Source of the DNA: an uncultured Gammaproteobacteria bacterium
GTDB taxonomy: Bacteria > Patescibacteriota > Patescibacteriia > 2-01-FULL-39-33
Reading direction: 5' to 3'
Length of the DNA stretch: 64,000 nucleotides
Assembly (NCBI GenBank): GCA_964512625.1
Contig: CAZEKG010000001.1
Coordinates: 127,652-191,651, forward strand
Shown here: positions 1,036 to 59,972 of the stretch, piece after piece
Layout: the number at the start of each line of letters is the position of its first letter
Position numbering within the stretch: position 1 is the first letter of the stretch
The notes under the pieces: generated by a model
The model's input: only the letters and a program-made list of their open reading frames with translations
Told to the model about the DNA's origin: nothing
Databases searched by the model: none
Position numbers and translations under genes: made by a program

Positions 1036-2001
1036 TTACCGACTTTCTTCGATTTGTTTGATCCAATTAGCAAAAACTTCCCCTGTTCTCGAATCTGGTC
1101 TCATTCGATGAAGACCGTTAAGATTACCAGCCGATTGCCAAGCGCCAGGCAAAGTCGTAACCGCACCAAGATAGCCAGCGTCAGCCACAATCTTTTTATA
1201 TTCTTCCTTATATCGACCATAAGGATAGGCAAAAGTTTCAACCGGCAATCCAGTTATTTGCTCTAAATCAGTTTTACTATTAGCAATTTCCGTCACCGCA
1301 TCATTATAGCCAATAATACTAAGATCAGGATGATTAAAAGTATGGGAACCAATTTCTACATAACCACTATTAGCCATTTCCTTGACCTGAGCATGAGTTA
1401 GATAACCAGACTGGCCAAGAGCATTAACAATAATATAAAAAGTCGCCTTCATATCATATTTCTTTAAGAGAGGATAAACATTGGTATAAAAATCAAGATA
1501 GCCATCATCAAAACTAAGAGCGACAGTTCTTGGCGGTAAAGCTTGATTCGCTCGGAGGCTTCTTGCGATATCTCTAACAAAAACCGTATTGTATGATAGC
1601 GATTTAAGTTCTTTAAGTTGATTCTCAAAATCAGCCGGCGCAATATATAATCCAGGTAATTTAGCATTCGGCGGAATCGGCTCGACATAATGATAAATGA
1701 AGATCGGCGCCTTAATTGAAAATTTAGACTGATTGCTGTCTTTAATTTTTTCTTCTTTTTTTGTTCCAACTATAACTGGCTGAGTAGTCGTAACTTCTTT
1801 ACTTATTACCGGCGTAGAAGAAACAGCAATAGTGTCGGTTATTCTTTGTTCATTCCAAAGATATTGCTGTTCGATATTTTTTTGACTGCCATTACTGCTG
1901 AAGGATAAACCATACCAATTCTCCAACCAAAAAAAACCGGCCACGGAGACGATAACTAATAAATTAACTGTCAAGATTATATTATTCCTATTTTTTATCA
2001 T
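1036..2001 (-). CDS. polysaccharide deacetylase (NodB-homology domain) with N-terminal TM anchor
   Basis: FDDGY and HTFNHPDL motifs typical of CE4 deacetylases; N-terminal hydrophobic helix. Confidence 0.75.
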   Translation of the reverse strand: MIKNRNNIILTVNLLVIVSVAGFFWLENWYGLSFSSNGSQKNIEQQYLWNEQRITDTIAVSSTPVISKEVTTTQPVIVGTKKEEKIKDSNQSKFSIKAPIFIYHYVEPIPPNAKLPGLYIAPADFENQLKELKSLSYNTVFVRDIARSLRANQALPPRTVALSFDDGYLDFYTNVYPLLKKYDMKATFYIIVNALGQSGYLTHAQVKEMANSGYVEIGSHTFNHPDLSIIGYNDAVTEIANSKTDLEQITGLPVETFAYPYGRYKEEYKKIVADAGYLGAVTTLPGAWQSAGNLNGLHRMRPDSRTGEVFANWIKQIEESR

Positions 2002-3362
2002 ACTTCGTAAAATTTTCCTTCTTCAATAATAACGGGATTGAGTTTTAATTTTTGTTTTATGCCATCAGCCAACATTAAACTTGATTTTTCCTCGCCATGA
2101 CCTATAAAAACAACCTTAGGCTTCGGACTATTTATCTTTTTTAACCAATGAAGCAATTTCGGCTGATCGGCATGGGAAGAATAAGCGCCAATCGCGGAAA
2201 CTTTCGCTTTTACTCTTATCTTTTTTCCTTCGATATTAATTTCCTTATCGCCCCTTAAAAGCCGTCGGCCGAGAGAGCCTTCTGATTGATAACTGATGAT
2301 TAAAAGATGATTTTTCGAACTATCAAGATACTCTTTAAGATGAAAAACCATGCGACCGCCGTTTAACATTCCGCCGCCGGCCAAAATGATCTTCGGCGGA
2401 GGCGTTCGATTGATTTTCTTGCTCTGGGCAACGGTTCTAGTATACTCTAATCCGGGGAATTTGAAAAGGTCATCGCCATCGCGGATTCTTGACCTTGACT
2501 CCTTATCAAAAAAATCATGGTATTTCTCATAAATCCCTATCGCCTCAATTGAAAGCGGGCCATCTAAAAATACCGGCACGGCCGGGATTTGGCGACTCTC
2601 CGAAAGATAATTAAGCTCATATAAAACTTCCTGAGTTCTTTCCAGAGCAAAAACCGGGATCATTAAAACTCCTCCTCGATCAACGGTTTCAAGGATCGCC
2701 TGACGCAACATCTTAACCCGGAGATCGGCCGGCTCATGGATTTTACCGCCATAAGTCGATTCAATAAAAACCACTTCCGCTCCTTTAATGAATTCCGTAT
2801 CCTGAACTACCGGCACAGGAGAATTACCTAAATCACCTGAAAAAACCAACTTTTTTTCCCTTAGGCCTTCCCTAACATAAACCTCAACTATCGCCGAACC
2901 AAGAATATGTCCGGCATCACGAAAAACAATTGAAACATCGGAAGATAATTTTTGTTTTTTACGATATGGCAATCCCCAAAAAAGAGGAAAAACTTTCCTA
3001 ACCTCCCTCTCTCCGTAAAGAGGCGGTAAGCGATATTTCTTAAATTCCTCAGCCATGACCTTAGCGCTATCGAGCATGATAATTTCCACCAACTCTCTAG
3101 TCGGATCAGTAGAATAGATCTTGCCATTAAAGCCCTCGGCGACTAACTTTGGCAACCGAGCGCAATGATCGGCGTGAGCATGAGTAAGAATAACGAAATT
3201 AATCTCTTTAGGATCAAAAGAAAAGGGCTTAAAATTATCCTCACTGGCAAAACGACCGCCCTGAAATATGCCGCAGTCAATTAAAAATTTCGTTTTTTTA
3301 GTTTCCAATAAAATGCAAGAACCGGTAACTTGCTTGGCGGCGCCGTTAAAAGATATTTTCAT
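1998..3362 (-). CDS. MBL-fold beta-CASP family ribonuclease (RNA-metabolising metallo-beta-lactamase)
   Basis: HAHADH motif, C-terminal beta-CASP/RMMBL-like region, 454 aa. Four-nt overlap with the downstream gene. Confidence 0.7.
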   Translation of the reverse strand: MKISFNGAAKQVTGSCILLETKKTKFLIDCGIFQGGRFASEDNFKPFSFDPKEINFVILTHAHADHCARLPKLVAEGFNGKIYSTDPTRELVEIIMLDSAKVMAEEFKKYRLPPLYGEREVRKVFPLFWGLPYRKKQKLSSDVSIVFRDAGHILGSAIVEVYVREGLREKKLVFSGDLGNSPVPVVQDTEFIKGAEVVFIESTYGGKIHEPADLRVKMLRQAILETVDRGGVLMIPVFALERTQEVLYELNYLSESRQIPAVPVFLDGPLSIEAIGIYEKYHDFFDKESRSRIRDGDDLFKFPGLEYTRTVAQSKKINRTPPPKIILAGGGMLNGGRMVFHLKEYLDSSKNHLLIISYQSEGSLGRRLLRGDKEINIEGKKIRVKAKVSAIGAYSSHADQPKLLHWLKKINSPKPKVVFIGHGEEKSSLMLADGIKQKLKLNPVIIEEGKFYEV

Positions 3363-9293: not shown

Positions 9294-9420
9294 GATTACT
9301 TCCGATTATTTCTTCTTCATTTTAGCTTAAATAATGATAAATTTCAATTCAAGGGAATTAAAAGAGGGGCGTCCATATCAATGGATCACCCCTTGTATTT
9401 CTCTGTCTGGAAGGAGCTCC

Positions 9421-9825
9421 TTAGGCGAGGATTGCTCCAATCAAATTTCCGTCGAAAAGACCTCCGGAATTGCAGAGCTCCGGTTTGGGCTCCCAATAGA
9501 ACTGGTAGTCCTTGGCGACGCCGAAACTTCCGGCATTGTTCGGAAGAAGGTCTTGGAAGTGACGTCGGCATTCCATCCAGAACAAACCGTTGACAAAATC
9601 GCTTTGCTCCCTCAAATCCTCAAGAACTTGTCGCGCCCTCTCTCCAAGAGCCTTGACCTCTTTGATGCTGTCGATCGCATCGAGCTCTTCCTGAAAGCGC
9701 TGCTTCGTCGCCCGCAACTCTTCACCCAAATACCTCCGAAGCGCGAACAGACGCTTCAGGCGGTCAGGAAGAACGCCGATGACAGTCTGGTTTTCTTCGA
9801 GTTCTGACAGCGGTCCCTCGACCAT
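9421..9825 (-). CDS. hypothetical protein, GC-rich orphan ORF (cassette a)
   Basis: 134-aa ORF in a ~600-bp block of ~50% GC. The overlapping plus-strand ORFs have poorer protein-like composition. Confidence 0.45.
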   Translation of the reverse strand: MVEGPLSELEENQTVIGVLPDRLKRLFALRRYLGEELRATKQRFQEELDAIDSIKEVKALGERARQVLEDLREQSDFVNGLFWMECRRHFQDLLPNNAGSFGVAKDYQFYWEPKPELCNSGGLFDGNLIGAILA

Positions 9826-10993: not shown

Positions 10994-12031
10994 ATGAAAA
11001 CGATTCAAGTAATTAGACTCTTCGAAGACGCCCAAACTCCGGTAAGAGCCAGTAACGGCGCGGTCGGTTTCGATGCTTTCGCCTACGGCGTGCTTGATGT
11101 GGAAACCAAGGAATACAAGGAAGGCGAGAGCTTGCCATTTACCCTCAATCCCGGCGAGAAGGTCCTCATCGGCATTGGCGTCGCTTTTGCCTGCCCCTGG
11201 CCGATCGAGTGCCAAGTAAGGCCAAGAAGCGGCTTAGCAAACAAGTACGGCATCGAACTAGGGAATTCTCCCGGCACCATCGATCCGGATTTCCGTGGCA
11301 ATGCGGGAGTATTACTTCGCAACCGCAGCGAGGATCCTTTCGTCATTACGAAGGGTATGCGAATCGCCCAGCTGGTCTTCGCGGAAGTTGAAATTCCAGT
11401 TTTCGAAGAAGTCGCAGTACTCCCAAAAACCCGCCGCGGCGCCGGAGGCTTCGGATCTACCGGCCTCCTACAGGTAATCGAGGGAACGGAAGAGTACCAA
11501 AGGCACCTTAATGAACAGGATACCTTCTATATGAGAATGGCCATCGCTGCCTCCGATCGCTCCAATTGCGTTCGCGGATGCCAAAAAGACAGCGACGGAC
11601 ATTACCGGCTTGACGAGAAAGGAAAGCTCATCGGACAAACGAGAAAGTTCGGTTGCGTGATCGTAAAAGGAGATAACGTCGTCTCCTTCGGCTATAACGC
11701 CCAAGCGCCCGGCCAGCCTTTGTGCTCGGAGGTAGGCTGCATGCGGGAAGATGAGGGCATTCCTTCCGGTTCAAGAATCGAACGATGCCGCGCCGTCCAT
11801 GCCGAAGAAATGGCTTTTTTGAAAATGCTGGCGAGCGGAGTGGCCGCCTCAACGATAGGCGCGACCATGTATGTTACCGCTGAGCCGTGCGAAGTCTGCG
11901 CTAAGTCCATTGCCGGCTCAGGCATAGACACGCTCGTCGTCCTCGAGGGAGTCTACCCTCAGAACGGCCTTCAAATCGTCAAAGACGCGGGCGTCAATGT
12001 GCGATTTGTAAGTAAAGAGGCTGTAGCCTAA
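10994..12031 (+). CDS. bifunctional fusion: N-terminal trimeric dUTPase + C-terminal zinc-dependent dCMP deaminase (ComEB/DCTD family)
   Basis: dUTPase motifs RSGLANKYGIELGNSPGTIDPDFRGN, GMRIAQLVF, RGAGGFGSTG. Deaminase motifs CSEVGC, HAEEMA, PCEVCAKSI. GC ~55% against a ~38% background. This is the only plus-strand gene among minus-strand neighbours. Confidence 0.85.
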   Translation: MKTIQVIRLFEDAQTPVRASNGAVGFDAFAYGVLDVETKEYKEGESLPFTLNPGEKVLIGIGVAFACPWPIECQVRPRSGLANKYGIELGNSPGTIDPDFRGNAGVLLRNRSEDPFVITKGMRIAQLVFAEVEIPVFEEVAVLPKTRRGAGGFGSTGLLQVIEGTEEYQRHLNEQDTFYMRMAIAASDRSNCVRGCQKDSDGHYRLDEKGKLIGQTRKFGCVIVKGDNVVSFGYNAQAPGQPLCSEVGCMREDEGIPSGSRIERCRAVHAEEMAFLKMLASGVAASTIGATMYVTAEPCEVCAKSIAGSGIDTLVVLEGVYPQNGLQIVKDAGVNVRFVSKEAVA

Positions 12032-14135: not shown

Positions 14136-14140
14136 ATCAT

Positions 14141-14211
14141 CTGCGGGACAGGGACTCGAACCCCGATAACACCCTCCAGAGGGGCGTGTCCTACCATTAG
14201 ACGATCCCGCA
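14141..14211 (-). tRNA. tRNA-Gln (anticodon CTG)
   Basis: Manual cloverleaf: acceptor TGCGGGA/TCCCGCA (U1-A72, G73, typical of bacterial tRNA-Gln), D-arm GTCT/GGAC, anticodon loop CTCTGGA, T-arm CGGGG-TTCGAGT-CCCTG. Confidence 0.8.
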
Positions 14212-14327
14212 ATACTTACACTTCGGCAATTAAGCCAATTAAGAAGCTAGAAAATCAAATGCTTCTCAATAATAACAGATTTAGTTGGTCTTTTCAAGTC
14301 TTTTATCTTAATTATCCCCACGCGCTA

Positions 14328-28081: not shown

Positions 28082-28582
28082 ATGATCCCTAGGTACTTTT
28101 TCGAGAAGGTCCTGAAGAACGGAATCGAGATCGATTTCGTCGAAGTAGTCCTTGATCCCGAAATCGCAGCAGAAATGCTCATCTTTGGAGCCAATTTCCA
28201 AATCGTTGAAAGAGGACACTTCGATTCAAGAGAACGTCTCTTGTCATTTGAGCACTTTCCGAAAGATGCTCAAAACCCAAGACGTATCGCCCTCGTCCGG
28301 TTCAAGACCGAAGTCAAGCCCGGAGAAGATGTCCTTCCTATCTTTAAGGAGTTTAACATCACTCCCGCAACCCTGATCGATATCCTAACTATCAATCTCC
28401 AACACCCCGGAGTAGTTGATGAATCCCCAATCGTCGCGCTCGGCGATATGAAGCAAGTCGGCGGCGAAAAGCACGCCCCAGCAATCAGCGGTAAAAGCGA
28501 CTGCCGATATCTCAATATGATGTTCTGCCTGGATGATGTTCCACGCAACGTCCGCTACGCCGGAGTCATTACCTGCTACTAA
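28082..28582 (+). CDS. hypothetical protein, GC-rich orphan ORF (cassette c, gene 1)
   Basis: 166-aa ORF with ~48% GC. Preceded by TTGACA at ~28004 and TATAAT at ~28054; RBS AGGAGA. Confidence 0.5.
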   Translation: MIPRYFFEKVLKNGIEIDFVEVVLDPEIAAEMLIFGANFQIVERGHFDSRERLLSFEHFPKDAQNPRRIALVRFKTEVKPGEDVLPIFKEFNITPATLIDILTINLQHPGVVDESPIVALGDMKQVGGEKHAPAISGKSDCRYLNMMFCLDDVPRNVRYAGVITCY

Positions 28583-28653: not shown

Positions 28654-30309
28654 CTAGACAGTCGCAACGACAGCGGCAACTCTTTCGAGGTAGCCGTCCT
28701 CGTCAACACGCAGTTGCTTAGAATCGATAAGACGGTTAATGGCCGACTGAATAGCCTTGACCATCAAACCATCCTTCATATTCAAAGGCAACGCGTAGCC
28801 TTCGAGGTTTCTTGCCTGCCTTAAACGGTTTACCACCTCGCCTCTCTTGAGATATACCTTGTCAGCCGAGGCTCGATCGATAATCTGTAAGACAGCCGCT
28901 TGCCAATCCTCCGGCGAATCAATGAGCTTCCGGCCGTCTTGGTAGAATTTACCTTTAGCCGAACCTTTATCGTAGAAGGACCTATTAATGGCGTCCTTCC
29001 CCGACTGAGGGCCTCGAGCTATCCTTTCGTCATCCAAGACGACAAGGTAGTTTTCCTTTTCCAAGGCGACTAACTCATTACGAAGATGATTCTCGACATT
29101 AGTATCAGAGAAAGTCGAGATATCATAGCTGAAGTAAGGAGCTGAAGATTTCGCTTTCTCCGTCACTCCCTCAAAAGTCAGGGTGTAGCCGGACTTCTCA
29201 AGAATACCCAACAAGATCTTTTGCCAATCTTCACTGGCAACAGGATACTTCAAAGGACCTTGAGGTGGCGCCGGACCGTGATTCTTTTCACGCCCCTGGG
29301 GATTTCTTCGCCCCGAGGCATCATCATCAGAGCCATCCTCGGCAGTTACGTATTCGCCGACAATACTCCTTAGCTTCTCGCGTCCCTTGGTGGTCAAATC
29401 GTAACAACCAGTAACAGGATCGCGTCTCAGCAGTTCCGCCTTACTCGAACCGTAGTTGAGCTGTTGAGTTATCGTCTTATTATCGAAACGTGGGTTGGCT
29501 TTCAGTGCTCGAGTGATATCATCGCGACTCATCGGACCCCGAGTAAAAACAGTAAGCAACTGATCGATAAGCTTCCCGGATTTCCCGGTCTTGGCTCGCC
29601 GATGAGATGCTTGCAATTGCGCCAAACGATCTTCGCGGTTAACTGACCGGCCATTGCCGGATTCAGCCTTTTCTTCCCGCAATTGAGCCTGGAGCTGTTG
29701 TTTGCACGTAACCTTCTGAGCGCTATCGACGGCTCCCGATTCAGCTCCTGTCTCTTCCGCCCGATGCCACTTGCGGTCAGTCCTACCGATACGACCGCTT
29801 TTTTTCAGTTTCAAAAGAGCCTGATAAACAGCGCCTTCGCTGTTCCCAACCTCTGAAGCAACTTCTTTAGTCGTAAACCCGCGTTTCGGTCCGCGACGGC
29901 TGACAATCTCGACGAGCTTATCTGATTTATCGTTCCGCTGTCCGCCCTTCGGCTTTTGGTTTGTAGCCGTTTCCTTGGAAACAGCCCGCCCATTGCCTTT
30001 CGAATCCGAGGTAGCTTTTTCCGGCAATTCAAGAATCTCTAAATCTCCTCTCGACTGAGAAGGAAGCAAGGCAAGATTTTCCTGCGCCTTCCTGGTAATA
30101 GCTTCGGCCTGCGCCGAAAGCTTCCCGGCATTTTCGATCTGCTTCCGATTTAGATCGTGAACCAAATCAAAAAACCTGCCGGTAAAATCCTTCCGATCCT
30201 CCTCGCTCAGACCCGTCTCCGGATCAATGCTGTGAACATCGGAAACCAAGACTGCCCCATCCTTTGGAAGAACAACCGCCAAGAAATTGCTTATTACCTG
30301 ACTTTCCAT
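28654..30309 (-). CDS. hypothetical protein with several winged-helix-like repeats, GC-rich orphan ORF (cassette c, gene 2)
   Basis: 551 aa with ~52% GC. Three or four segments have wHTH-like periodicity, separated by charged low-complexity linkers. Confidence 0.5.
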   Translation of the reverse strand: MESQVISNFLAVVLPKDGAVLVSDVHSIDPETGLSEEDRKDFTGRFFDLVHDLNRKQIENAGKLSAQAEAITRKAQENLALLPSQSRGDLEILELPEKATSDSKGNGRAVSKETATNQKPKGGQRNDKSDKLVEIVSRRGPKRGFTTKEVASEVGNSEGAVYQALLKLKKSGRIGRTDRKWHRAEETGAESGAVDSAQKVTCKQQLQAQLREEKAESGNGRSVNREDRLAQLQASHRRAKTGKSGKLIDQLLTVFTRGPMSRDDITRALKANPRFDNKTITQQLNYGSSKAELLRRDPVTGCYDLTTKGREKLRSIVGEYVTAEDGSDDDASGRRNPQGREKNHGPAPPQGPLKYPVASEDWQKILLGILEKSGYTLTFEGVTEKAKSSAPYFSYDISTFSDTNVENHLRNELVALEKENYLVVLDDERIARGPQSGKDAINRSFYDKGSAKGKFYQDGRKLIDSPEDWQAAVLQIIDRASADKVYLKRGEVVNRLRQARNLEGYALPLNMKDGLMVKAIQSAINRLIDSKQLRVDEDGYLERVAAVVATV

Positions 30310-30447
30310 GACCTACCCCTTTTAACCGTTCCCACCCTAAAAACACAAGAAAACTGATTTATTTCAAGCGCCTAATTCGACGCTACTTTTTAAGTACGAC
30401 TCACTAATTCAGTTTAATAACAATCGCCTATTTAAGTCAAATTAAAA

Positions 30448-30470
30448 ACACCCATAAAGGTGTTTTTAAT
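30448..30470 (-). terminator. terminator downstream of tRNA-Glu
   Basis: ACACC-N5-GGTGT with a T-run on the minus strand. Confidence 0.5.
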
Positions 30471-30477
30471 TTCTTTG

Positions 30478-30549
30478 TAGCCCCACGGAGAATCGAACTC
30501 CGGTTCTCGCCTTGAGAAGGCGGTGTCCTAGCCACTAGACGATGAGGCC
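30478..30549 (-). tRNA. tRNA-Glu (anticodon CTC)
   Basis: Manual cloverleaf: acceptor GGCCTCA/TGGGGCT (two G-U pairs), D-arm GTCT/GGAC, anticodon loop TTCTCAA, T-arm CGGAG-TTCGATT-CTCCG, discriminator A; no encoded CCA. Confidence 0.75.
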
Positions 30550-32385: not shown

Positions 32386-33471
32386 ATGGCCTATAATGTA
32401 ATTATGAGAGAAAAACTAGCCAAACTGCAATTAAGATTCGAAGAATTGGAACGCCTGCTTCAGGACGAGTCCATTGTTTCTAATCCGGAAAAAAGCAAGA
32501 AAATCGCCCAGGAATATGATGACCTTAAGGAAGTTATTGAGGCGAATAAGAAACTTAATAAAGTTGAGAGCGATCTGATTGAAATAGATAAGATGCTTGA
32601 AGATAATAAAGATGATGAGGAATTGAAAGCCATAACCGAGGAAGAGAAAAAAGCCCTTATCGAACAACAAAACGAATTAGAAAAAGAAATTCGGACTTTA
32701 CTGATCCCGAAGGATCCGGCCGATAAAAAAAATGTCATTATGGAAATAAGAGCCGGCGCCGGAGGCGACGAATCGGCTTTATTTTCAGCTGAGCTTTTCC
32801 GCATGTATTCCCGCTTTGCCGAAAAAAAGAATTGGAAAGTATCCCTAATCTCTTCTAATAAGATCGGCATCGGCGGTTTTAAAGAAGTTATTTTTGAAGT
32901 AAAGGGCAAAGATATTTACGGCTTGATGAAATATGAAAGTGGCGTCCACCGAGTCCAGCGAGTGCCGGAAACGGAGAAAAAAGGCCGCGTCCATACCTCA
33001 ACAGTGACTGTCGCCGTTATTCCGGAAATAGAAGATGTCGATATTAAAATCGACCCGAAAGACTTAAGAATCGATACCTTCTGTGCTGGAGGCCATGGTG
33101 GACAATCAGTCAATACGACTTATTCGGCGGTTCGCATAACCCATATCCCGACCAACTTAGTCGTTAACTGCCAAGACGAAAGATCTCAGCTCCAAAATAG
33201 AGAAAAAGCTATGATGGTTCTTCGCTCCCGGCTTTGGGCCCTAAGAAGAGAAGAAGAGGAAAAGAAGCTGAGCGCCGAGAGAAAATCCCAAATCGGAACG
33301 GGCGACCGCAGCGAAAAAATCAGAACTTATAACTTCCCTCAAGATCGCATTACTGATCATCGAGTCAATCTTAACTTCAATAACATTCCGGTCATCCTTG
33401 ACGGCGAAATAGAAGAGATAATCAAAGCCGTTAAAGAACATTACGATAACCTGCAAATCGTCGCTGATTAA
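32386..33471 (+). CDS. prfA: peptide chain release factor 1
   Basis: GGQ motif ([11 protein letters not shown]). The RF1-type codon-recognition loop [13 protein letters not shown] carries PET where PAT/PVT is expected. Exact start codon uncertain. Confidence 0.85.
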
Positions 33472-33508
33472 AAAATACTCCCTAACCGGAGTATTTTTTA
33501 TTTTAAGT

Positions 33509-41038: not shown

Positions 41039-41692
41039 TCACGTCAATTTTGGAACGACGACGCGATTACTAAGCTCAGCATCCCGGGCATAGCCACGCT
41101 CAAAGCGACTGACACTAGCACGGAGCTTGCCACTGACAGATAAGTACGCAAAAGCAACGAATAAATGACCATGCGACCAATATAGGAAAAAAGTCGCGCG
41201 ACCATCAAGTCGGAACCAGTCTCGATACTTCCTAGCGAAACCTCTGATCTGGGCCGGCGTAAGACAGAGCCTATCTAAGTCATGAGATAATGAGCCGAAC
41301 ATCTGAGGAAAAGTTCCGTCCCTCTCCAACTCGAGCACCTCGACTTTCGTAGCGAGTGTAGGCTTACCGGGTTCGTCCGCGCCCCAATTACGAAAATCAG
41401 GGTCGATATTTCCGTCGAAGACATCATGAGCACCAATAAATCCTTCCGTCCCGTCGGTCGCGTCGATAATGAGCTCATGATCACCTGAGACTGAGCGGAA
41501 GTAAGGTTTACAATTGACAATAACCTCCGCAATCCGCTTCAGCGTTTGCGCTCCTGCCGGCGTAATTAGACGATAAATATCCTCCATCGTCCCGCCGAGC
41601 TCTTTCACCTTATCTACAAGCAAAGTAATCAGGGATTGAAAAACCCCGGCGCCGGAAATAATCGCTTCCACCTCTTTCTTACTCTTAGCCAT
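41039..41692 (-). CDS. hypothetical protein, GC-rich orphan ORF (cassette d)
   Basis: 217 aa with ~52% GC; RBS AGAGAGGAAG. Confidence 0.5.
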   Translation of the reverse strand: MAKSKKEVEAIISGAGVFQSLITLLVDKVKELGGTMEDIYRLITPAGAQTLKRIAEVIVNCKPYFRSVSGDHELIIDATDGTEGFIGAHDVFDGNIDPDFRNWGADEPGKPTLATKVEVLELERDGTFPQMFGSLSHDLDRLCLTPAQIRGFARKYRDWFRLDGRATFFLYWSHGHLFVAFAYLSVSGKLRASVSRFERGYARDAELSNRVVVPKLT

Positions 41693-48184: not shown

Positions 48185-48438
48185 ATTTCTATAGAATTAT
48201 TTAATCTAATTAACTTTTTAAAAAACAAAATCCGTGGTTATCCACAGACTTTAAAAGCCAAAAAACGAGTTTCTAGCTATTATTTTCCTCGATAGGCCGT
48301 TTTATGGGTTTAAGCTCTAATACCTTAATTTATGGTATTTTTAGGCCTTAAGGCCTATTTTTAGAGCACCTATTGTCTGTGGAATTAGGTTTTACTTCCT
48401 TATTATAGCAAAATTAGGCCTTTTGTCAATAATCGGCT
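48185..48438 (-). promoter_or_regulatory. probable L10 (rplJ) autoregulatory leader
   Basis: ~250-nt untranslated leader upstream of rplJ with complementary segments (CCACAGAC/GTCTGTGG, GGCCTTAAGGCC palindrome); position-based inference. Confidence 0.35.
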
Positions 48439-55973: not shown

Positions 55974-56219
55974 TTAATCTGATATTTTTTCAAACCTAGG
56001 CCTCTTTACGCCGTCAACCTCGACTTCTTCTAAAAACATCTTAAGAGGACGGATCCATAAATCATAATTACCATAACGAGCTTTATAGACCACTAATTCT
56101 TCAAGCGTTTCACTATGCTTAGCAATGCCAATGACTTCATATTCGTTTCCTTTGTAATGGCGATATTTTCCTAGTCCTAATATATTATTTCCCATGGCAA
56201 TTCTTAAATTTCTTGCCAC
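55974..56219 (-). CDS. DUF1653 family protein
   Basis: YRHYKGNEYEV...WIRP...MF pattern. The likely start is a downstream ATG, since this ORF overlaps the secA 3' end. Confidence 0.55.
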   Translation of the reverse strand: MARNLRIAMGNNILGLGKYRHYKGNEYEVIGIAKHSETLEELVVYKARYGNYDLWIRPLKMFLEEVEVDGVKRPRFEKISD

Positions 56220-58908
56220 TACCGCAAGGGCAAGGCTCGTTACGGCCGACTTTCTCGCCGTCGTAATGAGAACTATCCTTAATAATCTTATCAGCCTTGC
56301 GCTCCTGAATTCCTTCGTCGGCCTCCATCGGCGACTTATATGAAGACTCCTTGCTCGGGGCGGAAAATTGCAAATTCTTCGGCGAAGCGTCGGTTTGCGC
56401 CATCTGCTGAGGCGTTACGAAGCCGATCTTAAAAATACTGAAAGCGATTTGTGAATTGATATTATTGAGCAGCTCCCGAAACATACTAATCGATTCTTTT
56501 TTATACTCGACCAGCGGATCTCTTTGGCCATAGCCGCGAAGCCCGATGCCAGTTCTCATATACTGCATAGTTTCCAAATGCTCAATCCAAAGAGTATCTA
56601 TAATTCGAAGTAAAACGGCTCGCTCGACTTGGCGCATCGGCTCAGTCGTCCCGTCTCCGCCAGGCAATGAATTGACCGCTGCTTCCATTTTATTATATTC
56701 CAAAACAGCCAACTTCTTTAAATAATTAACGATCATTTCCCGCGCCATGTAATCATCCTGACCATCTCCCGCTTCCGCTCGAAGCTCTTCCAATTTCTTC
56801 CTTAATTCCGGAGCGACTCTAAAGATAGCGGAGGCTCCTTCGTAAATCGCCTCTAAATCCCAAGTCTTTTCATCTTCCTCAATCGTCTGTTGAGCGACAA
56901 TACTTTCAATCTCCTTATCGAGAGCTTCAATAATAACTTCCTTAGTTCCTTCATTGAATAATATTTCCCTGCGCTTCTTATAAATCGTCTCACGCTGCTT
57001 ATTCATGACATCGTCATACTCGACAAGATGTTTTCTAATATCGAAATTATTGCCCTCAACTTTCTTTTGGGCCTGCTCGATTGATTTTGAAATAATGCCG
57101 TTCTCGATCGGCATATCATCCGGCACGCCAAGAGTTGTCATCATCGATTTCATCCTATCGGAGCCGAAAATCCGCATCAAATCATCATCCATGGAAATAT
57201 AAAACTGGGACTCACCAGGATCGCCTTGTCTTCCGGCACGGCCTCTTAACTGATTATCGATACGTCGTGATTCATGGCGTTCCGTTCCTAATACGCAAAG
57301 ACCGCCAGCTTCGACGACTTTCTTATACTCAGCTTCATCGAAAGGATAGCCGCCTAAAATAATATCAACGCCTCTTCCGGCCATATTGGTTGCAACCGTA
57401 ACCGCTTTAAATTTTCCAGCTTGAGCGATGATATGGGCTTCTTTTTCATGATGTTTAGCGTTTAAGATTTGGCACTCAATACCTTCGCGCGCCAATAAAT
57501 CAGCTAACAATTCATTCTTCTCAATAGAAACCGTGCCAATTAAAACCGGCTGGCCTTTTTCATATCTTTCCTTAACCTCTTTAGCGAGAGCCTGGAATTT
57601 TCCGGTTTCATTCTTATAAATCCGATCATTTAAATCTTTCCTAACCATCGGCCGATTAGTTGGAATCACGACGACTTCCAATTTATAAATCTTAAAAAAT
57701 TCCTCCGCTTCCGTAACGGCGGTACCAGTCATACCGGACAACTTCTTATAAAGACGGAAATAATTTTGAAAAGAAATAGTCGCTAAGGTCTTACTCTCCC
57801 TTTGGACTTCAACATTTTCTTTAGCTTCAATTGCTTGATGCAAACCTTCGCTATAGCGACGGCCGAACATCATACGTCCGGTAAACTCATCGATAATTAT
57901 AATTTCGCCGTCTTTAACTACATAATCGCGATCGCGCTTAAAAAGAGCTTCTGCCTTTAAAGCCTGTTCAATATGATGGACTTCGGTAATGCCCATATCG
58001 GTATAGATATTGCCAACACCTAAGATTTTTTCCACTTTTTCGATTCCGGCCTCCGTTAAGGTTGCCGCTTTCATTTTTTCATCAATGACAAAATCCTCTT
58101 CCTTGTTCAATTTTTTCGCTATCTGGGCGAATTGGGCATACTTCTCGGTCGATTCCATATCGGGCGCCGAAATAATCAACGGCGTTCTCGCTTCATCAAT
58201 TAAAATCGAATCGACTTCATCAACAATGGCATAAAACAGCTCCCGCTGGACCATTTCTTCAGGCGACTGAACCATATTATCCCTAAGATAATCGAAACCG
58301 AATTCATTATTGGTACCGTATAAGATATCGCAAGCATAAGCCTCTTTACGGGAGCATGGTTCAAGATATTGGACATCTAAAACTTCATCGCCTTCGACGG
58401 TTTGCTTGTTCGGATTAAAGCGCAAAGAATTATTCTGTTGTTGAATACAACCGATTGTAAAGCCAAGAAAATTATAAACCCGCCCCATCAAATCGGCGTG
58501 GATTCTTGAAAGATAATCATTAACTGTTACTAGATGAGCGCCCTTGCCGGCTAAGGCATTAAGATACATTGGCGCAACCGCAGTTAAGGTTTTACCTTCT
58601 CCGGTTCTCATTTCCGAAATATGTCCCCGATGCAAAGCGATACCGCCGATCAGCTGGACATCAAATTGCCTCTGACCTAAAACTCTTTTAGAGGCCTCTC
58701 GAACTGTCGCAAAAGCTTCGGGTAAGATATCGTCAAGAGTTTCCCCTGCTGCCAATCTTGCTTTAAACTCGACAGTCTTCTCCTTTAACTGCTCATCAGA
58801 AAGTTTTTCTATCTCGGGCTCCAGAGCATTTATTTTCTCTACTTCATCTTTAATGCTTTTCAAAGCTTTTTCATTCGGATCACCGAAAATTTTATTCAAA
58901 AATGACAT
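56185..58908 (-). CDS. secA: preprotein translocase ATPase SecA
   Basis: DEAD motor motifs, preprotein cross-linking domain, and the C-terminal zinc-binding CPCGSGKKFKNCHG. Confidence 0.95.
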   Translation of the reverse strand: MSFLNKIFGDPNEKALKSIKDEVEKINALEPEIEKLSDEQLKEKTVEFKARLAAGETLDDILPEAFATVREASKRVLGQRQFDVQLIGGIALHRGHISEMRTGEGKTLTAVAPMYLNALAGKGAHLVTVNDYLSRIHADLMGRVYNFLGFTIGCIQQQNNSLRFNPNKQTVEGDEVLDVQYLEPCSRKEAYACDILYGTNNEFGFDYLRDNMVQSPEEMVQRELFYAIVDEVDSILIDEARTPLIISAPDMESTEKYAQFAQIAKKLNKEEDFVIDEKMKAATLTEAGIEKVEKILGVGNIYTDMGITEVHHIEQALKAEALFKRDRDYVVKDGEIIIIDEFTGRMMFGRRYSEGLHQAIEAKENVEVQRESKTLATISFQNYFRLYKKLSGMTGTAVTEAEEFFKIYKLEVVVIPTNRPMVRKDLNDRIYKNETGKFQALAKEVKERYEKGQPVLIGTVSIEKNELLADLLAREGIECQILNAKHHEKEAHIIAQAGKFKAVTVATNMAGRGVDIILGGYPFDEAEYKKVVEAGGLCVLGTERHESRRIDNQLRGRAGRQGDPGESQFYISMDDDLMRIFGSDRMKSMMTTLGVPDDMPIENGIISKSIEQAQKKVEGNNFDIRKHLVEYDDVMNKQRETIYKKRREILFNEGTKEVIIEALDKEIESIVAQQTIEEDEKTWDLEAIYEGASAIFRVAPELRKKLEELRAEAGDGQDDYMAREMIVNYLKKLAVLEYNKMEAAVNSLPGGDGTTEPMRQVERAVLLRIIDTLWIEHLETMQYMRTGIGLRGYGQRDPLVEYKKESISMFRELLNNINSQIAFSIFKIGFVTPQQMAQTDASPKNLQFSAPSKESSYKSPMEADEGIQERKADKIIKDSSHYDGEKVGRNEPCPCGSGKKFKNCHGK

Positions 58909-58976
58909 AATTAATAGTTATTACTAGTTAGGGTATTTTATCAAAAAGACCCTAAAAATGCAACTTTTGTCAAATA

Positions 58977-59000
58977 TAAAAGCCGATCTGTTTAGATCGG
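58977..59000 (-). terminator. terminator downstream of cassette e
   Basis: AGCCGATCT-GTTT-AGATCGGCT followed by a T-rich run on the minus strand. Confidence 0.55.
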
Positions 59001-59222
59001 CTAGTCATGCCCGTAAAGACGGTATTGACCCGTCTTCTCATCAAGACTCAAGCGGGCATCTTCCCTGAGAACCTCGAGGCGTCTTGTGACTTCCTCTAGC
59101 TCAAGAAAAATGCCTCCGGCGGCCAGTTTGCTGGCGACTTGCTCCGGAGAAAGACGAACCGTCTTCCTCGTAAACAAGTTAAACCAAATCACTCTATAAG
59201 CGGGTCTGGTAATAAGACTCAT
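59001..59222 (-). CDS. hypothetical small protein, GC-rich (cassette e, downstream gene)
   Basis: 73 aa. Start overlaps the upstream stop by ATGA. Confidence 0.45.
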   Translation of the reverse strand: MSLITRPAYRVIWFNLFTRKTVRLSPEQVASKLAAGGIFLELEEVTRRLEVLREDARLSLDEKTGQYRLYGHD

Positions 59223-59560
59223 GCCACCTTCTCTCCTTCGGCTCGCTCCCTAATGCAAAAACAGAGGAGGGCGCAGCACTTATTGCTTCGCCGACTGCCA
59301 AAGCCCTCGAGTTCCAAGGTCCCGGACTCCATATCGATCCAATTGACGATATGAAACTCTCTCGTCAGGTCGTGAAGGACTAGCGACCCTTCTTCGATCT
59401 TCTGAGACGAGATCCAATCTAGTCTTTTCCTAATCTGCTCTCCTCGCGGATCTGAGAGTCTTCTCGCTTCCTGCCGATGCTGTTCGCCGATTACTTCATC
59501 AGCCAGCCGGCCAATCTCTCTCCCCCGAAAATGCCGGAATCTTTTCCCCATAGTTGCCAT
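59219..59560 (-). CDS. hypothetical small protein, GC-rich (cassette e, upstream gene)
   Basis: 113 aa, Arg-rich N-terminus, ~50% GC; RBS GGGG. Confidence 0.45.
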   Translation of the reverse strand: MATMGKRFRHFRGREIGRLADEVIGEQHRQEARRLSDPRGEQIRKRLDWISSQKIEEGSLVLHDLTREFHIVNWIDMESGTLELEGFGSRRSNKCCALLCFCIRERAEGEKVA

Positions 59561-59613
59561 GATTGCTTTTCCCCTTTTACCCTTCGATTGAATGTACTAC
59601 TACCCTAAAAACT

Positions 59614-59659
59614 AAAAAAGTGTACTTTATATAGTAACACTTTTTTAAAATAATTGCAA
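59614..59659 (-). promoter_or_regulatory. promoter TTGCAA-17-TACTAT with overlapping 10-bp inverted repeat (operator-like)
   Basis: Minus-strand -35 at 59654-59659 and -10 at 59631-59636. AAAAAAGTGT-N13-ACACTTTTTT (59614-59646) spans the -10 and the transcription start. Confidence 0.5.
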
Positions 59660-59672
59660 TACCCCTTAGCTT

Positions 59673-59972
59673 TTAACTGCTTTTTTCCTTATATTTAACC
59701 AATTCCATCTTTAATTTATCCCTAACTTCATTAATTGATTTAGTTATATTATCGGTTTCCGCCTCGGCCCGCAAAAGCTTCTTAGGAACAACCAAGTTAA
59801 CCTCAGCTCGGAAAATATCCCCCTTATTATGATGAAAAGTAGTAATCCCAACCTCTATATCCGCTTCCAGGATGTTATTATAATACTTAGATAACGACCT
59901 GACTTTCTCCTCTATCGTTTCCTTGGCCTCCGCCGTCAATTTAACATTGGTAGCCTTGATTTTGATTTCCAT
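59673..59972 (-). CDS. hpf: ribosome hibernation promoting factor (HPF/RaiA, short form)
   Basis: Sigma54-modulation/S30EA fold: MEIKIKATNVKLT...EVNL. Confidence 0.85.
   Translation of the reverse strand: MEIKIKATNVKLTAEAKETIEEKVRSLSKYYNNILEADIEVGITTFHHNKGDIFRAEVNLVVPKKLLRAEAETDNITKSINEVRDKLKMELVKYKEKSS

Follow-up and report, generated by a model that had tools for sequence, protein, structure and literature searches.

A putative two-gene accessory operon in the lineage-variable hpf-secA spacer of a Patescibacteria genome

Is a pair of small genes that overlap by four nucleotides, and that share a promoter spanned by an inverted repeat, necessarily a toxin-antitoxin (TA) system? This question is raised by a GC-rich cassette between the genes hpf and secA in a 64,000-nucleotide stretch of a genome from the Patescibacteria, or candidate phyla radiation (CPR). 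In the following, this whole stretch is named the window. The first-pass annotation of the window, which was made from its nucleotide sequence, had interpreted the cassette as a type II TA pair or a small-regulator arrangement. According to the comparative analysis described here, the region is, on balance, best understood as a genuine, independently transcribed bicistronic accessory operon in a lineage-variable slot between hpf and secA. Such an operon would combine a small, clade-restricted protein with a predicted winged-helix DNA-binding protein, and its interest as an ordinary accessory operon is considered low to moderate. The locus illustrates that small size, ATGA coupling and a promoter palindrome are insufficient to identify a TA system; this layout is not diagnostic, because the comparative context shows the two genes occurring independently.

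All features of the cassette are located on the minus strand, between hpf (59673-59972) and secA (56185-58908). The hpf product is a ribosome-hibernation protein of the RaiA type and matches the Pfam family Ribosomal_S30AE with an E-value of 1e-15. The first open reading frame (ORF1, 59219-59560) codes for 113 amino acids with an Arg-rich N-terminus (MATMGKRFRHFRGRE...), the second (ORF2, 59001-59222) for 73 amino acids that are predicted to form a stand-alone winged helix. The start of ORF2 overlaps the stop of ORF1 in an ATGA at 59222-59219. The two ORFs, the Arg-rich segment and the overlap were thus all found as the first-pass annotation had reported them. Of the six possible frames, the annotated one scores best for codon usage in both ORFs, and a purine-rich Shine-Dalgarno (SD) sequence precedes each of them. 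The promoter consists of the -35 hexamer TTGCAA (59654-59659), read directly from the sequence, and, 17 nt downstream, of an extended -10 element TGTTACTAT at 59631-59639, in which TG occupies 59639-59638 and TACTAT occupies 59636-59631. With a start site deduced from the -10 element, the 5' leader would comprise about 64 nt (59561-59624); it contains the SD-like sequence AAAAGGGG at 59578-59571. The SD sequence of ORF2, GAAGGAGAGAAGGTGG, was read at 59239-59224. Downstream of ORF2, the previously noted intrinsic terminator was confirmed at 58972-59002. It is composed of a 9-bp stem AGCCGATCT/AGATCGGCT (stem at 58981-59002) with a 4-nt loop, followed by the T-run TTTTATATTT; its hairpin has a folding energy of -14.6 kcal/mol and a folding z-score of -5.3. 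These features support a compact, self-contained unit of two co-transcribed genes that has a promoter and a terminator of its own. ORF1 would be translated from its SD-led start, and ORF2 by coupling through the ATGA. Paralogues of the two proteins were not found within the 64-kb window.

A protein search with hpf yielded 46 genome loci and 51 metagenome loci (designated by L numbers), nearly all of them from Patescibacteria. The gene order murB-hpf-secA is widely conserved across this group, and in most loci the hpf-secA spacer measures 31-270 nt and is free of ORFs. The close clade of the window was defined by a secA at least 68% identical. The spacer is empty in L002, L005, L006 and L007. 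In L003/L052 and L004 it contains a single gene for 116-136 amino acids, which has the same orientation and belongs to the ORF1 family. L001/L047/L051 contain a 90-amino-acid version of the ORF1 family, followed by a large serine recombinase, and L065 has a single gene for 79 amino acids that resembles a winged helix-turn-helix (wHTH) protein. The window is the only locus that contains both ORF1 and ORF2. The protein of L004 was read on 19 contigs; the order was always hpf-gene-secA, and a second small gene did not occur. Since relatives of ORF1 are found without ORF2, and the L065 candidate without ORF1, the occurrence of one gene does not depend on the other. The two housekeeping genes are conserved, and the spacer that separates them is an accessory slot of variable content. 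Two distant patescibacterial loci have spacers of other types: that of L009 (5364-6185) contains an ORF for 273 amino acids, and that of L069 (927-1861) extends over about 930 nt with short ORFs only.

The promoter is shared by those relatives that carry an ORF1-type gene. The pattern CTTGCAA-N17-TG(G)TATAGT/TATAAT can be aligned among the window, L001, L003 and L004; the -35 hexamer of the window aligns with CTTGCAA in these three loci, and its -10 element with TGGTATAGT / TGGTATAAT. The shared promoter TTGCAA-17-TACTAT of the first-pass annotation is thus confirmed by three relatives. It had been missed by a consensus scan, because only 8/12 positions match the consensus. The promoter is kept wherever an ORF1-type gene occurs, and the DNA beyond it is poorly conserved.

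The relationship of the ORF1-type genes is also evident at the protein level. ORF1 matches the syntenic ORF of L003 with a pairwise E-value of 5e-5, and the ORFs of L003 and L004 match with 5e-12. A direct comparison of ORF1 with the ORFs of L004 and L001 is not significant; the membership of ORF1 in the family is therefore based on L003 and on the profile, which recovers P0001, P0003 and P0004 with E-values of 1e-24 to 1e-50. All four proteins have in common the N-terminus M-[AG]-[ST]-x-x-L-[AK]-[RK] and the core W-[IV]-x2-Q-x4-G-V-x-V. In the four lineages, long open frames have been kept at an amino acid identity of only about 25%, and both the start context and the N-terminus are conserved. 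ORF1 thus agrees with the other members in sequence similarity, in its position between hpf and secA, and in its promoter. Outside this family, a search of 5.8 billion proteins with the single sequence returned only the query itself. When the four-sequence profile was applied to the same 5.8 billion proteins, and when 1.84 billion representatives were scanned in full with HMMER, only the known syntenic lineages were recovered; three additional profile hits were repetitive proteins and were dismissed as artefacts of repeat summing. ORF1 had no match in Pfam, NCBIfam, PHROGs, PADLOC and the PDB sequences, and no relatives among phages, plasmids and IMG/VR. The family to which the protein-coding ORF1 belongs is very small, evolves fast, is restricted to Patescibacteria and has no detectable link to known families. 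Its secondary structure is predicted to consist of two helices followed by three strands. ORF1 may be a small basic, possibly nucleic-acid-binding protein whose role would be independent of ORF2.

In the AlphaFold2 model of ORF2 computed from the single sequence (pLDDT 64, pTM 0.52), helices at residues 5-16, 26-35 and 42-54 are combined with strands at 24, 58-61 and 66-69. This H-b-H-H-b-b topology corresponds to the canonical H1-S1-H2-H3-S2-wing-S3 order of winged helices. A Foldseek comparison with DNA-binding folds, as had been recommended by the first-pass annotation, returned winged-helix domains throughout: the top 50 PDB hits were all wHTH or winged-helix proteins (Fur, LexA, IclR, MarR, GabR, Z-alpha, cullin WHB) with TMq values of 0.55-0.75 and E-values of 0.02-0.12. 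BFVD gave the same pattern and included small phage wHTH proteins. ORF2 is therefore predicted to be a small, stand-alone winged-helix protein that probably binds DNA. It resembles stand-alone wHTH proteins, namely the domains of Fur, LexA, IclR, MarR and GntR and small phage proteins, in its topology (TMq 0.6-0.75), and its 73 residues match the length of single-domain wHTH proteins from phages (62-80 amino acids). In contrast to wHTH regulators, it belongs to no sequence family and contains neither a sensor nor a dimerisation domain, and its DNA binding is a prediction from the model. The search of 5.8 billion proteins returned only the query, and relatives were found neither in the phage, plasmid and IMG/VR searches nor in the curated helix-turn-helix (HTH) families of Pfam and NCBIfam. 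In PADLOC, the only match was a weak one to the N-terminal part of JetA (E 0.0017). The searches of Pfam, NCBIfam, PADLOC and PHROGs gave nothing usable for either protein, in line with the first-pass statement that neither belongs to a recognised family. The lone ORF of L065 is similar to ORF2 in length and helix pattern; hhalign gave an E-value of 0.014 with 34% identity over 53 columns, and a shuffling test p = 0.02. The L065 ORF is the only candidate relative of ORF2 and may be its orthologue. CPR bacteria have small genomes with many unknown genes; the cassette provides two examples, a near-orphan winged-helix protein and a member of a very small protein family that evolves fast and is confined to one clade.

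A phmmer search of PDB with ORF2 also listed transcription activator-like effector (TALE) proteins with an E-value of 1e-7. This value resulted from summing 12-15 copies of a match of 0-7 bits. In the local alignment, residues 24-52 of ORF2 (59069-59153 of the window, LSPEQVASKLAAGGIFLELEEVTRRLEVL) are identical to the TALE consensus LTPEQVVAIASNGGGKQALETVQRLLPVL at 14/29 positions. TALE proteins contain tandem repeats of 33-35 amino acids, whereas ORF2 contains one copy, and the Pfam family TAL_effector did not match. A TALE identity of ORF2 was rejected, as 0-7 bits for a single repeat are estimated to be insignificant at this database size. The segment is better explained as the modelled H2-turn-H3 unit of the winged helix.

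What, then, is the role of the inverted repeat at the promoter? The first-pass annotation had reported a repeat of 10 bp across the -10 element and the start region. The repeat is present and is perfect over 11 bp (TAAAAAAGTGT-N13-ACACTTTTTTA, 59613-59647); its arms enclose the -10 element and the expected start site. No second match to its 7-bp core pattern exists in the window, for which chance predicts 0.01 matches. The proposed operator function is doubtful, as relatives that share the promoter do not share the repeat: L001, L003 and L004 contain none at that place. The repeat is specific to the lineage of the window. In the relatives, hpf is terminated by a strong GC hairpin of -19 to -21 kcal/mol that lies downstream of the hpf stop codon and upstream of the -35 hexamer. 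In the window, the distance from the hpf stop codon to the -35 hexamer is just 13 nt, and a GC hairpin does not occur there. As RNA, the repeat corresponds to an AU-rich hairpin of 14 bp with one bulge, which is followed by UUUUUUAGUUUUU (U6AGU5), has a folding energy of about -12 kcal/mol (z -2.9) and lies about 25 nt past the hpf stop codon. The core of this hairpin, with three G-C pairs and one bulge, contributes -3.4 kcal/mol, and its loop carries the -10 hexamer. A terminator scan made no call at 59613-59647. About a dozen further perfect repeats, each composed of A-tract, stem, loop, stem and T-tract, are located at the ends of genes elsewhere in the window, and the cores of two of them (30439-30472 and 33469-33500) are equally weak.

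The repeat is at least as likely to be the terminator of hpf as an operator, because it occupies the position of the relatives' hairpin, which is missing here, and matches the terminator style of this genome. The chances for a role as hpf terminator are judged to be about even. A role as ORF2 operator is clearly less probable, a combination of both roles is rather improbable, and a repeat with neither role is more improbable still. In the case of an hpf terminator, transcripts coming from upstream would contain both arms of the repeat and would terminate at the AU-rich hairpin and its U-tract, which would replace the GC hairpin found upstream of the -35 hexamer in relatives. Transcription of the operon would begin about 7 nt past TACTAT. 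As this start is located within the repeat, the left arm would be missing from transcripts of the operon, which would escape termination and read through. The arrangement resembles overlapping terminator-promoter arrangements with bidirectional A-tract/U-tract terminators in that an A-run forms the 5' arm and a U-run the 3' arm of a hairpin behind hpf, an architecture also seen in at least 8 further perfect repeats at gene ends of the window. It differs from them by the very weak core stem and by the -10 hexamer in the loop, and termination is a prediction here.

Two further repeats have to be mentioned in this context. At 175-260 of the L065 contig (Ga0265594_1068597), the spacer contains a promoter TTGATT-17-TGTTACATT that, like the one of the window, is not preceded by an hpf terminator hairpin. 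A palindrome AAATGT-T-ACATTT covers its -10 element, upstream of the lone wHTH-like ORF. In the window itself, the promoter of the neighbouring secA gene (TTGCAT-17-TGATAAAAT, 58928-58963, minus strand), which is not part of the operon, aligns with the secA promoters of L003 and L004. Its -10 element is covered by a second inverted repeat, TTAGGGTCTTTT-TGAT-AAAATACCCTAA at 58928-58955, which is unique in the window (0.04 expected) and does not occur in the secA promoters of L003 and L004. This second repeat could be a regulator site. ORF2, as a predicted DNA-binding regulator, may repress its own promoter via the first repeat or may act at the second one. The locus would gain in interest if ORF2 controlled the expression of secA or hpf, or if ORF1 bound to ribosomes.

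The composition of the cassette is consistent with the first-pass value of about 50% GC: it amounts to about 51%, compared to about 39% for the host. Its ORFs have a GC content of 0.50-0.53 and a GC content at third codon positions (GC3) of 0.53-0.57, whereas host genes have values of 0.37-0.43 and 0.35-0.44, respectively; neighbouring genes have a GC content of about 0.40, and the excess is found at all codon positions. Similar values (GC 0.49-0.54, GC3 0.50-0.60) are shared by the cassette and the GC-rich ORFs at 10994-12031, 28082-28582, 28654-30309 and 41039-41692, all of which have a purine-rich SD sequence, often in a TCATG context. A recognisable SD sequence is missing from most of the window's genes with host composition. 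Most GC-rich islands may therefore have a foreign origin in common or represent a distinct class of expression, and the earlier idea of foreign cassettes is supported by the GC3 values and SD-led starts common to most of them. Raised GC3 and SD-led starts would point to a GC-richer donor, from which the cassette was probably acquired when the conserved flanks, hpf and secA, recombined. Such an exchange of spacers with GC-richer relatives is a reasonable, hypothetical scenario. Two further islands were noted: the ORF at 123-461 has a GC content of 0.48 and a strong SD sequence, and two overlapping ORFs at 9334-9825 have GC3 values of 0.58-0.62 and no SD-like sequence.

How do other explanations compare with an accessory operon? 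If the repeat were chiefly an operator, ORF2, probably as a dimer, would bind two AAAAAAGTGT half-sites 23-24 bp apart and repress its own synthesis, and termination of hpf transcripts would be incidental. A perfect 11-bp repeat around the -10 element and the start site is far from a chance event; it exists at the sole locus with ORF2 and is absent from relatives with ORF1 only, and L065 with its wHTH gene has a short palindrome over the -10 element. An operator role for ORF2 is possible because repeat and ORF2 co-occur only in the window, which is, however, a single locus. Moreover, the arms consist mostly of A6 and T6 tracts typical of the bidirectional terminators of this genome, the repeat is located where relatives have the hpf terminator that the window lacks, and the spacing of the half-sites is entirely different (13 nt in the window and 1 nt in L065). 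A repeat that is chiefly an operator is thus doubtful. Of the small-regulator layout proposed initially, the part concerning ORF2 as a small, probably DNA-binding winged helix is retained, and the part concerning the operator is not supported by the relatives that share the promoter. In toxin-first type II modules such as HigB-HigA, MqsR-MqsA and HicA-HicB, two small co-transcribed genes overlap by 4 nt, the second product has an HTH-type fold, and the promoter contains a palindrome. By analogy to the order in HigBA or MqsRA, the toxin, of a novel type, would be ORF1; the antitoxin would be the winged-helix protein ORF2, and the repeat would serve as operator for autorepression. The cassette resembles these modules in its two small, adjacent and ATGA-coupled genes with one promoter and one terminator, in the wHTH-like second product and in the perfect repeat across the -10 element. 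Its composition looks foreign, and the two helices and three strands predicted for ORF1 are loosely compatible with RelE/ParE-like topologies. In contrast to the known modules, toxin or antitoxin families were not matched by either protein in Pfam (E<=1), NCBIfam (E<=10), PADLOC, PHROGs and a PDB profile search, and the fold search with the ORF1 model, which is too poor for a fold call, returned no RelE/ParE protein. The pair was seen once, and the palindrome is lineage-specific, terminator-like and missing in relatives that share the promoter. The first-pass annotation had itself stated that homologues occurring singly would speak against a TA pair. Such single occurrences were found for ORF1 and, probably, for ORF2: relatives of ORF1 occur alone in L001/L047, L003/L052 and L004, so that its homologues persist without an ORF2-like partner in three lineages, in one of them on 19 contigs, and the candidate ORF2 relative occurs alone in L065. 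Because of these single occurrences and the missing family matches, the TA interpretation is regarded as decidedly unlikely.

It is also conceivable that the ORFs are spurious and that the GC-rich segment is a structured non-coding RNA, as GC-rich segments in AT-rich genomes often are. The near-orphan status of both proteins and folding z-scores of -3.5 (minus strand) and -2.8 (plus strand) are in agreement with this idea. However, Rfam gave no match even at an E-value of 10, the DNA beyond the promoter is poorly conserved, the annotated frames are the best of six, and the in silico fold of ORF2 is a clean winged helix. The strongest argument is comparative, namely the open frames and the conserved start context and N-terminus in four lineages. 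A non-coding origin was rejected as barely credible, since z-scores without an RNA family are outweighed by the coding evidence. A transfer-messenger RNA or tRNA attachment site, which was considered due to the sequence GGTTCGAGCC in L001, was discarded as well; ARAGORN and Rfam found nothing there or in the corresponding region of the window. Alternatively, a mobile element with this slot as its target, for example a large-serine-recombinase element, might have carried the cassette as cargo or left it behind as a remnant, with ORF2 as a leftover small wHTH factor of the excisionase or recombination directionality factor type. The ORF1-family gene of L001 is indeed followed directly on its 3' side by the gene for a GC-rich large serine recombinase (Resolvase + Recombinase + Zn_ribbon_recom), and small stand-alone wHTH proteins are common in phages. 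Besides the foreign-looking GC3 and SD usage, a 10-nt direct repeat TTTTTAGGGT flanks the cassette, with copies in the ORF1 leader (59611-59602) and in the spacer of the secA promoter (58958-58949). In the window, however, no recombinase adjoins the cassette, matches to phages, plasmids and IMG/VR are missing, and the 8-mer TTTAGGGT is not enriched (5 found, 2.9 expected), for which reason it was rejected as a recurring site. In relatives, the promoter and the gene of ORF1 keep their position, which fits inheritance or homologous exchange better than a site-specific insertion, and an inverted repeat in L001 that reaches the contig end may be an assembly artefact. A mobile element at this site is accordingly judged improbable. 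A more far-reaching proposal is that the hpf-secA spacer is an exchange hotspot for small, SD-led, GC-rich micro-cassettes, which are transferred by flank recombination or by serine-recombinase elements as in L001, and that ORF1 and ORF2 form a new functional pair, either a toxin-first TA or defence module or a basic protein with a regulator that acts on ribosome hibernation or Sec translocation. This combination is considered improbable to a similar degree.

The interpretation as a bicistronic accessory operon is itself subject to several objections. The genome of the window was not part of the DNA collections searched, and the relatives used for comparison are not very close. The function of either protein is a prediction: the model of ORF2 is of moderate quality (pLDDT 64) with Foldseek E-values of only about 0.01-0.12, and the homology of ORF2 and the L065 ORF is weak (BLASTP E 1.6). 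The AlphaFold2 model of ORF1, computed from an alignment of three sequences, has a pLDDT of 41 and is unusable; a fold search with it gave E-values above 0.6 only, and the Tudor, Sm and L24-like barrels that were listed were dismissed as noise in view of the poor model. The ATGA overlap, which contributes to the TA-like appearance, is unremarkable, as an identical 4-nt overlap is found in the window between 1036-2001 and 1998-3362. No other hairpin of its class is as weak as that of the promoter repeat (-11 to -12 kcal/mol, with a core of -3.4), and termination may therefore be inefficient. Finally, the family member of L001 is GC-rich and those of L003 and L004 have host-like GC contents; the foreign origin is therefore not uniform across the ORF1 family.

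Some additional observations concern the surroundings of the cassette and of its relatives. The recombinase element of L001/L051 (1098-2900 of JBAYLX010000125 / Ga0172381_10072333) is bracketed by a perfect inverted repeat of 93 nt (1192-1284 and 2808-2900) that extends to the contig end, and secA is not located on this contig. The region represents an invertible or a mobile element, or else an artefact of the assembly. In the window, a leader similar to that of ORF1, GTTTTTAGGGT...TAAAAGGGG...TCATGG (30341-30334), precedes the GC-rich ORF for 551 amino acids at 30309. The GC-rich ORF at 10994-12031 (plus strand, 345 amino acids, 54% GC) encodes a dUTPase (E 3e-24) fused to a dCMP/cytidine deaminase (E 1e-17) and is oriented opposite to its neighbours. 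Ordinary features of the window are the leader of ribosomal protein L10 at 48214-48400 on the minus strand (Rfam RF00557, 50 bits) and the genes for tRNA-Gln (14140-14212) and tRNA-Glu (30477-30549).

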